From: a virus
Taxonomy: Duplodnaviria; Heunggongvirae; Uroviricota; Caudoviricetes
Length of the DNA: 34,445 bases
Direction: 5' to 3' (one strand)
Virus record (IMG/VR): IMGVR_UViG_2617271086_000002
Coordinates: 1-34,445 of that record
Shown here: in pieces, positions 21,435 to 34,445 of the stretch
Layout of the letters: each line of letters begins with the position of its first letter
Position numbering within the stretch: the stretch's first letter is position 1
Program-made: the position numbers and the translations under genes
The notes under the pieces: generated by a model
What the model saw: only the letters and a program-made list of their open reading frames with translations
Told to the model about the DNA's origin: nothing
The model's database searches: none

Positions 21435-21977
21435 TTAATTAGTGAGTCCGGGGATTACGGTTTGCCCGTGCTGTTCAAGGCGTTCAATTCTCGCCAGTAG
21501 CTGAGGCTTCTTAATTTTTCCCCAGCGATTTAGCAGGCGACCTGACATGCTGGCAACATCCTTCTCTTTCATGTACTCCAGCATTACGGCATTTCGCTCT
21601 TCTTCAAATTGACGATTACCAACCTGAAGCATGGCGTACATCCAGTTGAATGCGTTGATGTAAGCAATTTTGATACGCATTGCTTCTTTTTTGGTGTAGG
21701 ACATAACCAAAAGCATCAACCCATCCTTGCGGAGACGGTAGAATTTTTGCGGCTTACCATTCTGTAACTCATTGTTTTTATAGCAAAGCTCAAAGTTGAG
21801 CTTTGTATCAAACTCAGGAGGGCAAGCTTCTATGGTTCGTTCAATGTCACGAACCACGTTCTTCGGCAGCTTTCCAAATGCTTTTGCCACCATAAAAGAA
21901 TCTGTAACCGGATCGTTGTTTGCTACAAAAATTAGGTCTCTGAAATCTATATCGTTAACAACGGTTGGGTAGTTCAT
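21435..21977 (-). CDS. Rha-family phage regulatory protein. Start at the internal ATG 21975-21977; the longer track ORF is rejected.
   Basis: 180 aa from MNYPTVVNDIDFRDLIFVANNDPVTDSFMVAKAFGKLPKNVVRDIERTIE..., with an AAGG ribosome-binding site upstream of this ATG. Confidence 0.65.
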   Translation of the reverse strand: MNYPTVVNDIDFRDLIFVANNDPVTDSFMVAKAFGKLPKNVVRDIERTIEACPPEFDTKLNFELCYKNNELQNGKPQKFYRLRKDGLMLLVMSYTKKEAMRIKIAYINAFNWMYAMLQVGNRQFEEERNAVMLEYMKEKDVASMSGRLLNRWGKIKKPQLLARIERLEQHGQTVIPGLTN

Positions 21978-22124
21978 TGCGTCTTTACCTTTTAGAAAGA
22001 TGAGCCTGTTCGCACAGAAAAGCCGTCCCCGAGATGGTCGCCACCATATACGGCAATTCTCAGGCTCAGCTTTCTGAAAGACTCGGGGTTTATATGCGCT
22101 GCGATGCGCGTTTACTGAGGACAC

Positions 22125-22148
22125 AAAAAAGCCCCGCAAATGCGAGGC
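22125..22148 (-). terminator. Rho-independent terminator downstream of Rz
   Basis: Minus strand GCCUCGC-AUUU-GCGGGGC (7 bp stem with one G-U pair) followed by a U6-7 run (plus 22125-22130 aaaaaa). Confidence 0.6.
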
Positions 22149-22322
22149 TAAATCCTGGTGTTTGTGATGACTGTCTCTTATCTCAACGCAGCCCCTTACC
22201 GCGCGCCAGATGCTCAATATCAAGCATCAGCAATGAGATGTTTAATCTGGATTCACTCCAGAAGTGATCACCACCCTGTCTACAGAGCCAGATGTGAAGG
22301 ATGATGAGTAAAATTATCGCTA

Positions 22323-25094: not shown

Positions 25095-25381
25095 GACTTA
25101 ATCTTCCCCTCCTTCAGCAGTATCGCCTGCGTCCTGATCACGCCTTCGAGGTGGTAAAGCCTGGCGTCTTTGTTGTCGAGATTATGGGTGCGTCGGTCGA
25201 TTTCATCGTGACACGCGCTACAAGCCCATGCGCCGATCAGGTCGTCAGGCTTCATTCCCGTTCCGCAAATTCCAGCCATCCGGTAATGTGCCAGAACTGT
25301 AGTTTCAGGGTTGCCATTGCATACGCCGTAAATACGTACCTGGCATTCTCTGCCGCGTGCTTCTTTGCGTAGGTTAGCCAT
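25091..25381 (-). CDS. YbcO-like (DUF1364) Cys-rich putative nuclease
   Basis: 96 aa ORF closely resembling the DLP12 YbcO pattern (MANLRKEARGRECQVRIYGVCNGNPETTVLAH...CSACHDEIDRR). Confidence 0.65.
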   Translation of the reverse strand: MANLRKEARGRECQVRIYGVCNGNPETTVLAHYRMAGICGTGMKPDDLIGAWACSACHDEIDRRTHNLDNKDARLYHLEGVIRTQAILLKEGKIKS

Positions 25382-26103
25382 TAAGCAGCCTCCCCGGTTA
25401 CTTTCAGCATTCCGTTATCGAGAAGCTTTCTGGTCAGCCACTGTTGACCACGCCCGGTGATTTTTGTGGTGAACGATATCTGTATCCCGTGATTTGTGTT
25501 GACCGCTGTTTCTTTCACTGTGAAATAGCCGCGATCCATATATTCCTGCATTGGCACATTGCGCCGGGAACCTGAAGCAATAAGGATTTTGTGATCGCGC
25601 ATCCACGCAAACAGTTTGTTTGGACCAATTCCAACAACCTTTGCAAAGTTTCCAATCAAAATTCCGCTGGCCTCGCCAACGCGATCGGCAAACTCAACTT
25701 TAGGTGCGGCAATTGCGAGCTGGTTTTCCAGTTGCATTTTCTGCTCAGCAAGATCAGCAGCAAGGCGCAACGCTTCCGGTAGCGTTTTGGGGATATTAAC
25801 CGCAGCTTCTTCAAGCTCTCGCCAGCGGTCAACAAGGCGGGCGGTGAACTCTGGCGACAACTGGGCAACAACAACAATACTGTCTCGCTTACCTTGTTCG
25901 CCTTCGAAGACGTAATGCTCGTACTGAACATTGAACCCTAAGTTATTGATTCTTCCGGAAACCTCAATTTGAGGAAGCCGGATAACACCATTTTTAGCCA
26001 GCGTTTCGATGGTACGTTTCACATTGTCATGACGCTTACCCACCAACTCAGCGATTTCAATGCTTGTCATTTTGATGGCATTGCCATTTATTAACTCATT
26101 CAT
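25381..26103 (-). CDS. Antirepressor-like protein (Rha-type N-terminal domain plus KilA-C / Ant C-terminal domain)
   Basis: 240 aa ORF. The N-terminus (MTSIEIAELVGKRHDNVKRTIETL) is Rha-like and the C-terminus (..LFAWMRDHKILIASGSRRNVPMQEYMDRGYFTVKE..) is KilAC-like. Its ATG overlaps the ninF stop. Confidence 0.65.
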   Translation of the reverse strand: MNELINGNAIKMTSIEIAELVGKRHDNVKRTIETLAKNGVIRLPQIEVSGRINNLGFNVQYEHYVFEGEQGKRDSIVVVAQLSPEFTARLVDRWRELEEAAVNIPKTLPEALRLAADLAEQKMQLENQLAIAAPKVEFADRVGEASGILIGNFAKVVGIGPNKLFAWMRDHKILIASGSRRNVPMQEYMDRGYFTVKETAVNTNHGIQISFTTKITGRGQQWLTRKLLDNGMLKVTGEAA

Positions 26104-31268: not shown

Positions 31269-31919
31269 ATGAATACACAACTGATGGGTGAGCGTATTCG
31301 CGCTCGCAGAAAAGAACTCAAGATTAGGCAGGCTGCCCTTGGCAAGATGGTTGGCGTGTCTAATGTTGCTATTTCCCAATGGGAGCGATCTGAAACTGAG
31401 CCCAATGGCGAAAACCTATTGGCCTTAGCCAAGGCTTTGCAGTGCTCCCCTGATTACCTGTTGAAAGGAGAGGATAGTCTTTCAAACATTGCCTATCACA
31501 GCAGGCATGATCCAAGAGGTTCGTATCCTCTAATTAGTTGGGTAAGCGCAGGATGTTGGATGGAAGCTGTAGAGCCATATCATAGGCGTGCAATAGATAA
31601 CTGGTACGACACAACGGTAGATTGTTCTGAAGACTCTTTTTGGCTCGACGTTAAAGGCGATTCAATGACTGCCCCGGCAGGACTGAGTATTCCTGAGGGG
31701 ATGATTATTCTCGTCGACCCAGAAGTCGAGCCACGTAATGGAAAGTTGGTAGTCGCCAAACTTGAAGGAGAAAACGAGGCGACATTCAAAAAGTTAGTTA
31801 TTGATGCCGGTAGAAAATTCCTGAAACCACTCAATCCACAATACCCAATGATTGAAATCAATGGGAACTGTAAAATCATTGGCGTTGTCGTTGATGCCAA
31901 GCTAGCAAACCTTCCTTAA
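31269..31919 (+). CDS. c2: C2 repressor (P22 c2 / lambda cI family, LexA-like autocleaving repressor)
   Basis: 216 aa ORF matching P22 C2 from memory, with an N-terminal HTH (QAALGKMVGVSNVAISQWERS) and a C-terminal S24 peptidase-like domain (..GDSM..). Confidence 0.9.
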   Translation: MNTQLMGERIRARRKELKIRQAALGKMVGVSNVAISQWERSETEPNGENLLALAKALQCSPDYLLKGEDSLSNIAYHSRHDPRGSYPLISWVSAGCWMEAVEPYHRRAIDNWYDTTVDCSEDSFWLDVKGDSMTAPAGLSIPEGMIILVDPEVEPRNGKLVVAKLEGENEATFKKLVIDAGRKFLKPLNPQYPMIEINGNCKIIGVVVDAKLANLP

Positions 31920-31940
31920 GGGGCTTTCGCCCCTTTTTTA
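31920..31940 (+). terminator. Rho-independent terminator of the repressor transcript
   Basis: GGGGC-TTTC-GCCCC followed by TTTTTTATTT, immediately after the c2 stop. Confidence 0.7.
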
Positions 31941-31945
31941 TTTCC

Positions 31946-32060
31946 CGTTAAAAATCAAAGACAAACTAAATTCACGCCCATAAAATTAAGTTTTCTTCAA
32001 AAATGAACTTGACCAATAAATTAAGAAGTCTTAAATTTAAGCCATCAGCAGGACGCTGGA
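31946..32060 (+). promoter_or_regulatory. OL/PL region (operator-like sites upstream of the N-like gene)
   Basis: AT-rich region containing the operator-like sequence ATTAAGAAGTCTTAAATT and related half-sites, between the c2 terminator and nutL. Confidence 0.45.
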
Positions 32061-32083
32061 AGCCAAACGGAACAGATTGGCAG

Positions 32084-32123
32084 GCTCTTTAACATCGACG
32101 GACTCTCAACCTAACCGTTGAGA
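32084..32123 (+). promoter_or_regulatory. Candidate nutL (boxA plus boxB-like hairpin)
   Basis: GCTCTTTAACA (boxA-like, 32084-32094) followed by a hairpin TCTCAAC-CTAACC-GTTGAGA (32104-32123). The loop motif CTAACC is shared with the nutR candidate. Confidence 0.5.
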
Positions 32124-32233
32124 CCAGAACTTGAGTGGTTTTGGGGATGGCGCGAATTGCAGCTGCAAGACAGCGATCGAGAAGATAAGCACCTCGACGC
32201 GTCATGCGCCAAAGCCACTTAAAGGAGACCATC

Positions 32234-32506
32234 ATGGTAACCATTGTCTGGAAAGAATCCAAAGGTACGGCAAAAAGCCGCTACAAAGCTCGCAGAGCAG
32301 AACTTATTGCCGAGCGACGCAGTAATGAAGCACTGGCGCGAAAAATTGCGCTAAAGCTCTCTGGTTGCGTCAGGGCAGATAAAGCAGCATCACTCGGAAG
32401 CCTTCGCTGCAAGAAGGTAGATGAATGCAGTGGAAGTATTTGCCTGCCAAACGTAGCCATTTACGCGGCAGGCTACCGGAAATCAAAACAACTGACAGCG
32501 AGGTAA
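32234..32506 (+). CDS. N-like early antiterminator (P22 gp24 family). Start at the ATG at 32234, which has an AAAGGAG ribosome-binding site.
   Basis: 90 aa ORF with an N-terminal Arg-rich motif (GTAKSRYKARRAELIAERR) and a C-terminus LPNVAIYAAGYRKSKQLTAR resembling P22 gp24. Confidence 0.7.
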   Translation: MVTIVWKESKGTAKSRYKARRAELIAERRSNEALARKIALKLSGCVRADKAASLGSLRCKKVDECSGSICLPNVAIYAAGYRKSKQLTAR

Positions 32507-32509
32507 GTG

Positions 32510-32734
32510 ATGAATCAGACATACATTCCATCATGCTTGAGAAATCTGCCAAAGCAGAAAGCAAAGCCCCGCAAGCAAGCCATAAAGGACGCTAAGGCAG
32601 AAGTTATCGATAAGGCCATTAACCTGCTTAGAGAGGAGTTAAGGAGTGAAAAGCTCAACGGAATGCTGATGCCTTATCAGCGCGGATATCTTTCGGCGAT
32701 TAGTAAGCTGGAAGTATTGAAGAGTGAATTATGA
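32510..32734 (+). CDS. Hypothetical Lys-rich small protein (first gene of the accessory cassette)
   Basis: 74 aa ORF with a GAGG ribosome-binding site, starting 4 nt after the N stop. Confidence 0.45.
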   Translation: MNQTYIPSCLRNLPKQKAKPRKQAIKDAKAEVIDKAINLLREELRSEKLNGMLMPYQRGYLSAISKLEVLKSEL

Positions 32735-33423
32735 ACTATCTGGAATTTCCGGATGGTTCATTGTTTTGGCAGCAAACCACTTATTTGAGAGGAATTAATA
32801 TGTCATCAATCCGCTTAACTACGAGAATGAAAGAGGAAATCGCTCGTAACGCTTTAATTAAGCCTGGGGTTTTCACTGAACTTGAAGAAGTAACAAAGTT
32901 AAAGAACCAGCTTGCACTTGACGCCAGAGTTATTGCGTTTGGCGGTAAAAAGAAAACTGAGGAAGTGGATCAGTTATCATCCAAGTTGGTAGCTATAAGT
33001 GAAGAACTTGAAAAGATGGGATGTTCATTTTACTCATACGATGTTAGTTCTACTTCAATTTATCTTACTGTATCTGGCAGAAGGGTTGGATGGCTTTCAT
33101 ATGGGGAAGACGGCAACGGCGAAGATATATTGCTCCCTACTCCGACCAAAGATAAATGCATGTTTGACGCAGAACACGAAATAACAAAAAGGTTTGATGA
33201 AATCTGCGCATTGCAACAAAAACTTGAAGCCAAGAAAAAGGATATCGAATCAAATGTATGGGCTGCTTTGAACTCAGTCACAACAGTTAAGCGACTTATT
33301 GAAGTTTGGCCTGAAAGCAAAGAATTGCTACCAAAAGAAGCAGATAAAGCAAGTACAGCACTTCCTGCTTTACGGGTAGAAGATTTGAATAAGATGATTG
33401 GACTTCCTTCCGAGGCCGCATAG
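32731..33423 (+). CDS. Hypothetical AT-rich accessory protein (230 aa), predicted soluble with helical/coiled-coil character; function unknown
   Basis: Long ORF with ATGA coupling to the upstream gene. An alternative start at 32800 has a GAGAGGA ribosome-binding site. Sequence is visibly more AT-rich than the flanking N and c2 genes. The stop codon lies inside a terminator hairpin. Confidence 0.55.
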   Translation: MNYLEFPDGSLFWQQTTYLRGINMSSIRLTTRMKEEIARNALIKPGVFTELEEVTKLKNQLALDARVIAFGGKKKTEEVDQLSSKLVAISEELEKMGCSFYSYDVSSTSIYLTVSGRRVGWLSYGEDGNGEDILLPTPTKDKCMFDAEHEITKRFDEICALQQKLEAKKKDIESNVWAALNSVTTVKRLIEVWPESKELLPKEADKASTALPALRVEDLNKMIGLPSEAA

Positions 33424-33438
33424 TCGGCCTTTATTTTT
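33413..33438 (+). terminator. Rho-independent terminator overlapping the stop codon of the 230 aa gene
   Basis: AGGCCG-CATAGT-CGGCCT followed by TTATTTTT. Confidence 0.6.
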
Positions 33439-33462
33439 GGCATAAATACACAGAGGTGAATA

Positions 33463-33714
33463 ATGACAGTAGGAAGAATGAAAAGGCCATGGAATGTTGT
33501 TGGCGCTGGATTTAACGATGATGGGGTTTATTTCACGTTTGACGATACAACCATCCATCGAGGTGATGTGAGATTGATGGAGGCAGCTCCTGATTTGCTC
33601 GAAGCTCTGCAAGCGATGCTAAACAAGGCATACAAGCAAAACTGGAATGACCATTATCCTGATGAAGTATCGAAAGCACAGTCAGCGATCAGCAAAGCTC
33701 TTGGAGGTGAGTGA
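33463..33714 (+). CDS. Hypothetical protein (83 aa)
   Basis: ORF in the early-left operon between the 230 aa gene and the cIII-like gene. Confidence 0.4.
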   Translation: MTVGRMKRPWNVVGAGFNDDGVYFTFDDTTIHRGDVRLMEAAPDLLEALQAMLNKAYKQNWNDHYPDEVSKAQSAISKALGGE

Positions 33715-33960
33715 CGCGACATTACGTGATTACTTCGCAGCAAAGGCTAGGCAAGCAATGATTAGCAATCCATCGATTATCGATAATGATTCTGATTGAG
33801 ATGTTAATTATGCAGCAAGCGCTGCATATAAGTTTGCAGACGCAACGCTCAAAGCTCGCGAATAAGCACTGTGTATTCATTCCAACGAGTGAATACACGG
33901 AGCAATGTCGCTCGTAACTAAACAGGAGCCGACTTGTTCTGATTATTGGAAATCTTCTTT

Positions 33961-33986
33961 GCCCTCCAATGTGAGGGCCTTTTTAT
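33961..33986 (+). terminator. Rho-independent terminator upstream of the cIII-like gene
   Basis: GCCCTC-CAATGT-GAGGGC followed by CTTTTTAT. Confidence 0.6.
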
Positions 33987-34050
33987 ATGCATACCAATAA
34001 CGCTTCACTTGAGGCGTTTTCGTTATGCAATCAAATATAAGGAGTTACCC

Positions 34051-34185
34051 ATGATGCACTTTCAGCTCGCGGGTAGCGGCGTCATGTCCGCTTTCTACCC
34101 GCACGAATCTGAATTATCACGCCGAGTTAAACAATTAATCAGAGCAGCAAAGAAACAACTGGAGGCGTTATGCGCAATGAAATAG
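34051..34185 (+). CDS. cIII-like small protein (putative FtsH inhibitor), 44 aa
   Basis: MMHFQLAGSGVMSAFYPHESELSRRVKQLIRAAKKQLEAL parallels lambda CIII (..IAGWPVAGCPSESLLERITRKLRDGWKRLIDIL). AAGGAG ribosome-binding site 6 nt upstream. Confidence 0.5.
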   Translation: MMHFQLAGSGVMSAFYPHESELSRRVKQLIRAAKKQLEALCAMK

Positions 34186-34322
34186 TCATTAATCACCAGA
34201 TGCTTCGTGCTGCACAGAACAAAGCAGTAATAGCCAGATTTATTGGTGATTCCAAAATGTGGCTTGAAGCAAATAAAGCGATGAAATCAGCTATCAACCT
34301 TCCGTGGTATCGCAGGAAATGA
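34170..34322 (+). CDS. Kil-like small protein (putative host division inhibitor), 50 aa
   Basis: MRNEIVINHQMLRAAQNKAVIARFIGDSKMWLEANKAMKSAINLPWYRRK. The IARFIGDSKMW segment resembles the lambda Kil core as recalled. GGAGG ribosome-binding site upstream. Confidence 0.4.
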   Translation: MRNEIVINHQMLRAAQNKAVIARFIGDSKMWLEANKAMKSAINLPWYRRK

Positions 34323-34445
34323 GTTTTACAGATAACTGGTCAGACGAAGAATTCATTCGTCAGATGAAAGAATTAATCGGTAACGAAGGAGATATTCATG
34401 TCACTTGCAACCACAGTGAAGGAGAGCAAGTTACAGAGACGCATG
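34319..34445 (+). CDS. Partial ORF continuing beyond the window (early-left operon gene, unknown)
   Basis: ATG at 34319 overlapping the kil-like stop (ATGA); reads MSFTDNWSDEEFIRQMKELIGNEGDIHVTCNHSEGEQVTETH... with no stop before the window end. Confidence 0.3.
   Translation, partial: MSFTDNWSDEEFIRQMKELIGNEGDIHVTCNHSEGEQVTETH

Follow-up and report, generated by a model that had tools for sequence, protein, structure and literature searches.

Mosaic early-gene modules between N and cIII of a lambdoid prophage, and a possible accessory role in phage DNA metabolism for its Nmad5-family protein

The interval between the N-like antiterminator gene and cIII of the lambdoid prophage carried on a whole 34,445-bp contig (IMG/VR record IMGVR_UViG_2617271086_000002, here called the window) is made up of catalogued genes in the mosaic fashion typical of lambdoid phages; two of these genes belong to named families, and the whole does not amount to a new system. 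Positions 32507-33990 of this interval had been described in the initial annotation as a three-gene accessory cassette bracketed by intrinsic terminators. Sequence comparison instead resolves it into three separately exchangeable early-gene modules, the central one of which carries a gene of the Nmad5 family. With a probability of roughly one half, we propose that Nmad5 is a non-catalytic accessory protein of phage DNA metabolism, produced early from the leftward promoter PL under the control of N, and that it exposes a conserved surface to host defence.

The modules were delimited on 86 lambdoid loci from phages, Escherichia coli genomes and IMG/VR, all selected for carrying Nmad5 and mapped onto the window. 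The segments of the interval recur in this set at very different frequencies (Table 1), and the single-cassette claim fails against three modules that assort independently. In most relatives, N stands directly before Nmad5 and the non-coding segment directly after it. Positions 32501-32789 form one module, composed of the 74-codon gene orf74 and a hairpin-bearing spacer, with junctions mapped at 32765-32789. Of the 86 loci, 80 retain the hairpin and U-run at 33412-33441 alongside the Nmad5 module. Identity ranges from 34 to 99% for the flanking N proteins and from 29 to 100% for the repressors, and lies at 93-99% for Nmad5. A fixed recombinase partner for Nmad5 was considered and rejected, as at least four types of module (Erf/Rad52-like, ERF, RecT and Sak4-like) are found downstream. 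The Nmad5 gene is present in 211 of 5426 complete E. coli genomes (~4%) with neighbours that differ from prophage to prophage, in keeping with the variable slot that had been anticipated. Some part of the whole interval is matched in 2240 of the 5426 genomes, a figure that probably comes mainly from the non-coding segment ahead of cIII, and only one genome covers at least 80% of the interval. The exact combination of pieces is rare and the single pieces are common; the sequences themselves are already known, and the prophage of the window is one of several hundred near-identical Nmad5 carriers.

The 230-codon open reading frame (ORF) at the centre of the interval matches PF18757 (Nmad5) with E = 8.2e-71 and 238.8 bits against a cut-off of 27, its residues 27-226 covering profile positions 1-206 of 206, and matches phrog_1965 with E = 1.7e-82. 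The Prokaryotic Genome Annotation Pipeline (PGAP) calls the gene as 624 nt under the name 'Nmad5 family putative nucleotide modification protein'. The three proteins had been described as not assignable to any known family, a statement that does not hold for this ORF, nor for the 83-codon gene orf83 (XkdD/Y8K6, PF27050, by way of its homologues) or for orf74 (phrog_5305). Weak Pfam matches of Nmad5 to YfjL_C, SKA2 and P4Ha_N were treated as noise, because they fall below the cut-offs and within a coiled-coil region. The three co-oriented ORFs are indeed present at 32507/32510-32734, 32731-33423 and 33463-33714, but the second is over-extended and a fourth, decayed gene had been missed.

The true start of Nmad5 is most likely ATG 32800, giving a protein of 207 amino acids. 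An AGGA Shine-Dalgarno sequence lies 6 nt upstream of this codon, and close as well as distant homologues, typically of 190-220 amino acids, begin with M-S/T-x-R-L-T at the equivalent position; the 71 close homologues span 197-251 amino acids, and the 2294 cluster representatives at 50% identity are nearly all single-domain proteins of ~200 amino acids. The first 23 codons of the longer frame align with positions 1-23 of another PHROG. The 230-codon frame would exist because two modules happened to join there, and its 23 additional codons would represent the non-coding module junction, so that the longer call is best regarded as an artefact of that junction. In APC_JM3.2, the same spacer stays open for 20 codons before a stop, and an unrelated gene follows, whereas in P0139 (109 amino acids) it is joined to a homologue of orf83; gene callers sometimes extend a downstream gene into it.

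The gene is under purifying selection (ratio of nonsynonymous to synonymous polymorphism, pN/pS, of 0.33), with intact copies in 78 of 80 cases. Conservation over 145 diverse family members comprises an N-terminal R-L-T...I..A..K.G, a G-G turn and, most strongly, a C-terminus of the form T-V-K-K-L-x-x-x-W-P-E-x-x-E-L-x-P ... L-P-x5-L-N-x2-I-G-L-P; the protein of the window has both the N-terminal RLT and the C-terminal TxK[KR]LxxxWPE...LN..IGLP motifs. About 48 records of Stx2a-converting phages (e.g., LC616058.1 11132-11653) match Nmad5 over residues 34-207 only, so that this lineage may have a copy truncated at its 5' end; the copies of Stx1a-converting phages are full-length. A 127-codon antisense ORF inside the Nmad5 gene, on the minus strand (33060-33443), is probably a by-product of A+T-rich sequence, with no evidence for a gene.

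The proposed role in DNA metabolism is suggested by the company that Nmad5 keeps in about a dozen sampled phage lineages. In the N4-like phage Pollock, the gene order is DNA polymerase, thymidylate synthase, Nmad5, exonuclease and primase. Nmad5 lies immediately upstream of DNA polymerase A in Acinetobacter phage Scuro, between the helicase-primase and the exonuclease, single-stranded DNA-binding protein and polymerase genes in the Jersey-like Klebsiella phage VLCpiS11a, after the helicase/primase in eiAU, and before replication protein O in Vibrio phage Athena1. In prophages of Providencia, Serratia and metagenomic origin (42-46% identity), it follows the repressor at a distance that varies from a few hundred bases to ~1 kb, as the first called gene downstream of it in two of them, and in Providencia it is the leading gene of an operon that also includes DUF2800 nuclease, Enc34 single-stranded DNA-binding and Pol A genes. 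The initial annotation had taken homology to a routine recombination or replication protein as grounds against its own reading, and this partly applies: the family does reside in such modules in most of the other lineages examined, but is not itself a routine enzyme. Nmad5 would be helical and non-catalytic and would serve the early replication or recombination machinery of the phage. Its conserved C-terminal T-V-K-R-L-I-x-x-W-P-E motif and LP...DLN..IGLP tail would provide the contact with DNA or with a protein partner, and host defences such as Tmn may respond to this same C-terminal surface.

The AlphaFold2 model of Nmad5 (predicted local distance difference test, pLDDT, of 84.6) begins with a helix at the N-terminus, followed by a long helical hairpin, a small beta element, a further long helix and two short ones; a disordered linker then leads to a short helix at the C-terminus. 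A profile search of the sequences in the PDB returned nothing below E = 0.2, a viral structure library returned only other Nmad5 proteins, and no cluster of catalytic-type residues stands out across the 145 members. With a predicted helical fold that has no match to solved structures, Nmad5 does not look like an enzyme. This bears on the explanation that the name of the family invites, namely that Nmad5 takes part in a pathway for the modification of DNA bases or nucleotides. The family owes its name, used in Pfam and by PGAP, to members encoded in thymidine hypermodification clusters, among them that of YuA, where it is gp15, and those of the M6 and SN1 phages; it also adjoins a thymidylate-synthase homologue in Pollock and lies near one in YuA. 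The label reportedly goes back to Iyer et al. 2013. Association with modification enzymes is nevertheless confined to the YuA-type and N4-type relatives: neither the complete genome of mEp235 nor the non-structural genes of the window contain a hydroxymethylase, kinase, aGPT-Pplase, glycosyltransferase or methylase, and in lambdoid phages the genomic context lends the name no support. The thymidine hypermodification pathway of M6 was reconstituted with gp51-gp55 (PMC8989533), a set of five proteins that, by synteny with YuA gp10-gp14, would exclude the Nmad5 homologue. Together with the predicted helical fold and the missing catalytic-type cluster, this makes a part in modification unlikely.

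The one functional clue for Nmad5 comes from the Tmn defence system. Dhillonviruses escape Tmn when nmad5 acquires a single missense change (K296E in SM_S22, K216E in SMA8; Yamashita et al., PMC11846954). In SM_S22, the phage survives the deletion of nmad5 and keeps its sensitivity to Tmn, so that Nmad5 is neither essential nor the only trigger of Tmn. The Dhillonvirus gene could not be cloned and is apparently toxic (PMC11846954). K296 of SM_S22 CDS6 aligns with R165 of the window protein, the second basic residue of T-V-K-R-L in the most conserved motif. In phage T2, Tmn is directly triggered by RIIB, described as an early replisome factor (2026 preprint, PMC13001434). Taken together with the neighbourhood pattern, these observations make the reading of Nmad5 as an accessory protein the most economical one. 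A more specific version, which we put forward only tentatively, would make Nmad5 a widespread non-enzymatic early replication/recombination factor with no part in nucleotide modification. Membrane NTPase defences of the Tmn type would directly recognize its conserved C-terminal surface, including R165, in the way that RIIB is recognized in T2; alternatively, a single change could turn that surface into a blocker of Tmn.

The same data can be read in another way, along the lines of the initial annotation, with Nmad5, alone or with its small neighbours, as an early counter-defence or host-takeover protein that inhibits a host immune system or nuclease. The gene is the first after N in the slot of ral and sieB, its distribution is patchy and its G+C content low (0.40), and in Dhillonviruses it is a moron-like insertion on the opposite strand. 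Its apparent toxicity fits this explanation, as does the escape from Tmn by missense change and not by deletion, which the authors read as a gain of function (PMC11846954), and the lack of a predicted enzyme fold is common for inhibitor proteins. Wild-type Dhillonvirus Nmad5, however, gives no protection against Tmn (PMC11846954); searches of Pfam, PHROGs and NCBIfam link the protein to Nmad5 itself and neither to Ral or Ocr nor to a further family; with a net charge of -4, it is not a strongly acidic DNA mimic; and a steady place in the replication modules of virulent phages would be unusual for a swappable anti-defence gene. An inhibitor of this kind is a possible explanation that we would not favour. 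Literature searches on mEp235 and on anti-defence genes between N and cIII turned up nothing on the Nmad5 gene. The 'NMAD' domain of a defence system validated with DefensePredictor is Nmad2 (PF18753), not Nmad5, and is irrelevant here.

Several observations weigh against an accessory role of Nmad5 in replication or recombination. The evidence for that role comes from gene neighbourhood only, and in Dhillonviruses the gene sits in the head module, its deletion being tolerated as described above. A core replication factor would be expected in more than the ~4% of E. coli genomes that carry Nmad5, a share more in line with an accessory or conflict gene. With an isoelectric point (pI) of 5.3, the protein is also mildly acidic, which is atypical of DNA binders, and the helix-turn-helix-like character of residues 155-176 is a reading by eye of the sequence and of the secondary structure of the model, with no fold match.

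Expression of the interval from PL, as initially supposed, is consistent with the presence of nutL and with a promoter signal that does not exceed chance. The nutL site lies upstream of N, so transcription from PL should be antiterminated by N; its sequence is identical to the 'putative Nut boxA site' annotated in mEp235. Orf74 with its spacer, Nmad5, orf83 with the decayed gene, and the hairpin segment would all be read from PL by N-modified RNA polymerase, which would run through the internal terminator-like hairpins. On the basis of such N-dependent timing, which we infer from this arrangement, the genes would therefore be silent in the lysogen and switched on early after induction or infection.

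Terminator-like sites number 7 in the region, compared with 2.8 +/- 1.6 in shuffled sequences. A G+C-rich stem followed by a U-run is predicted at 33412-33441, 33961-33986 and 33999-34024, at -10 to -11 kcal/mol and z of -1.8 to -2.8. Both hairpins that had been proposed to bracket the three genes fit the pattern of an intrinsic terminator, but the first lies between the second and third genes, and further hairpins occur at 32731-32761 (a much stronger one, between the first and second genes), 33866-33903 and 33999-34018; terminator-like hairpins therefore punctuate the interval and do not bracket it. Covariation in the hairpins was uninformative, their sequences being nearly invariant. The long hairpin at 33866-33903 opens a non-coding segment (33860-34020) upstream of cIII that recurs in ~78 of the 86 loci and has no Rfam match; this hairpin could be an RNA-processing site or part of a terminator cluster. 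A scan of 31800-34445 against Rfam gave only sub-threshold chance matches.

Promoter-like sites occur at chance frequency in the region (5, against 4.6 in shuffled sequences), and the 35 bp of the Nmad5 module upstream of ATG 32800 contain none, both by consensus scan only. The best promoter-like match of the region, at 33437-33464 (TTGGCA, 16 nt, AATAAT; 10 of 12 positions), overlaps the start codon of orf83 and so would not express this gene; it is probably a chance match. The Nmad5 module combines two traits of morons, a deviant G+C content (0.40 vs 0.50) and its own hairpin and U-run at 33412-33441, and lacks a third, its own promoter, as far as a consensus scan can tell. The low G+C content extends to the whole of 32507-33990, as had been noted (41.9% against 49.7% for the window; 40.2% for the Nmad5 gene itself), and only 0.6% of windows of the same size are as low.

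These features bear on the possibility that the genes form a superinfection-exclusion or anti-phage module, expressed by the prophage to protect the lysogen in the manner of lambda sieB or rexAB. The slot between N and cIII holds sieB in lambda and P22, and the region shares its low G+C content and terminator-like hairpins with morons. The genes lie, however, downstream of nutL and N inside the repressed PL operon, with no promoter signal above chance and with the sole strong promoter-like site placed over the orf83 start codon. The proteins are soluble and without a hydrophobic segment (highest 19-residue hydropathy of 0.6 or less); the description of the largest as hydrophilic and unlike SieB is correct, and the lack of a membrane segment speaks against exclusion. 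PADLOC-DB returned no match for Nmad5, orf83 or the small ORFs, and only a chance-level match over 15 residues for orf74 (E = 0.012); Pfam and PHROGs gave no Ral, SieB or Nun match for the proteins of the interval, and NCBIfam no useful match for its ORFs. As the Nmad5 family is also present in strictly virulent phages, protection of the lysogen appears very improbable.

Table 1. Features of the early leftward region of the window, with the share of the 86 compared loci in which each module is found
Feature	Position	Strand	Remarks
P22-type c2 repressor	31269-31919		Followed by a terminator-like hairpin
nutL	32084..32124	+	boxA GCTCTTTAA and boxB-like hairpin, upstream of N
N-like antiterminator	32204..32506	+	PF25694, E = 5.9e-17; phrog_271
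orf74 module	32507-32750		7/86 loci
orf74	32510..32734	+	Small basic protein (pI 9.8), 74 amino acids; phrog_5305, E = 4.8e-37; translationally coupled to N
Strong hairpin	32731..32761	+	-20.3 kcal/mol, z = -5.0, then UGUUUUGG; terminator-like; within the spacer at the 3' end of the orf74 module
Nmad5 module	32775-33445		Nmad5 with own ribosome-binding site and terminator-like hairpin; 84-86/86 loci
Nmad5-family gene	32800..33423	+	207 amino acids (most likely start); PF18757; phrog_1965
Terminator-like hairpin	33412-33431	+	U-run to 33441; -11.0 kcal/mol; Nmad5 stop codon in the loop
orf83	33463..33714	+	Small acidic protein; phrog_1273, E = 5.5e-18; XkdD/Y8K6 (PF27050) family by way of its homologues
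orf83 and remnant gene module	33475-33850		2-3/86 loci
Remnant of a 67-codon gene	33707-33862	+	5'-truncated (first 16 codons lost); in-frame TGA at 33797-33799
Invariant long hairpin	33866..33903	+	14-bp stem; -21.7 kcal/mol, z = -7.0; nearly invariant across loci
Non-coding hairpin and terminator segment	33875-33975		~78/86 loci
Two terminator-like hairpins ahead of cIII	33961-33978, 33999-34018	+	-10.7 and -9.9 kcal/mol
cIII	34051-34185	+	PF08134, E = 2e-30; downstream boundary
kil	34170-34322	+	PF06301, E = 1.7e-20; downstream boundary

The leftward early operon occupies the plus strand of the window, and the minus strand carries the late, lysis, nin and replication genes, among them Q, RusA, YbcO, NinX, NinB, a DnaB-like helicase and replication protein O. 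Profile matches to PF25694 and PF08134 confirm the borders initially assigned to the interval, with the end of N at 32506 and the beginning of cIII at 34051. The N protein itself likely starts at ATG 32234 and not at the listed ATG 32204, for a length of ~90 amino acids, as the start of mEp235 gp39 and its AAGGAG Shine-Dalgarno sequence align with ATG 32234. Matches to a PL-like promoter are found by consensus scan at 31958-32037. Elsewhere on the minus strand, two separate regulatory or antirepressor-type genes encode Rha domains (21435-22223 and 25381-26103), one combining Rha with ORF11CD3 and the other with a KilAC ANT domain.

Homologues of orf74 (n = 41, 58-96% identity) come from Enterobacteriaceae and are without a Pfam domain; a role as an analogue of Nun was rejected, since orf74 does not align with the Nun-like protein found at the same position in mEp235. 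Orf83 itself has no NCBIfam match at E <= 0.1, and its link to PF27050 comes via its homologues: the domain is precomputed on 212 of them, including 98%-identical ones. One such protein, WP_128357223.1 from an ST131-type prophage locus, is 98% identical to orf83 and is named 'XkdD/Y8K6 family phage-associated protein' by PGAP. The model of orf83 shows a beta-hairpin and two helices with no informative fold match, and its conserved motif reads W10...AAPDLLEAL...AISKA. In this family, a conserved C-terminal half (AAPDLLEAL ... AISKALG) is joined to several unrelated N-terminal halves, which suggests recombination inside the gene. The remnant that follows orf83 is 92% identical to residues 17-67 of WP_230894805.1, with a stop in place of a Gly; the corresponding gene is intact in strain PD7 (L004 3748-3951).

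The region is largely ordinary, a common and catalogued arrangement, and the initial annotation had picked out real features in the right biological neighbourhood. The slot between N and cIII is built from small modules, each with its own hairpin, and its principal gene belongs to a large family, with 2294 clusters at 50% identity, distributed over temperate and virulent phages. The residue hit by the Tmn escape mutation is conserved in the prophage of the window, and easily handled coliphages such as mEp235 and Kapi1 could therefore be used to probe the function of the family. If the tentative link with Tmn holds true, lambdoid prophages with Nmad5 would differ predictably in their sensitivity to Tmn-type defences.

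The interval is best compared with the early-left genes of lambda, P22 and HK022, such as ral, sieB, ea10, gene 17 of P22 and nun of HK022. These occupy the same position between N and cIII and are transcribed in a PL- and N-dependent manner, non-essential and variable between lambdoid phages, traits that the genes described here would share; the two sets nevertheless share no sequence similarity, and SieB is membrane-bound whereas the proteins of the interval have no membrane segment. Among the relatives of Nmad5, which include mEp235 gp37, HK24401 of HK244, Kapi1_018, YuA gp15 and SM_S22 CDS6/BF9 gp17 of the Dhillonviruses, those of mEp235 and HK244 share 97% amino acid identity with the copy of the window and stand in the same slot after N. 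The copy of the window differs in having the orf74 module ahead of it, with the spacer that gives rise to the artificial extension of 23 codons. The copies of YuA and M6 have modification enzymes as neighbours, whereas that of the window has none, and the Dhillonvirus copies differ in an enlarged central beta insertion, absent here, and in their orientation, the gene of the window being co-oriented with its operon. Orf83 shares the AAPDLLEAL and AISKA motifs with the XkdD/Y8K6 family, and its N-terminal half is one of several alternatives on the common C-terminal half. Finally, RIIB of T2 and T4 is made early and has ties to phage replication, and single missense changes in it abolish restriction by Tmn (PMC13001434). 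Nmad5 of Dhillonviruses likewise acquires escape by missense change, at a residue conserved as R165 in the window, but the two proteins are not homologous, and deletion of nmad5 did not relieve restriction.

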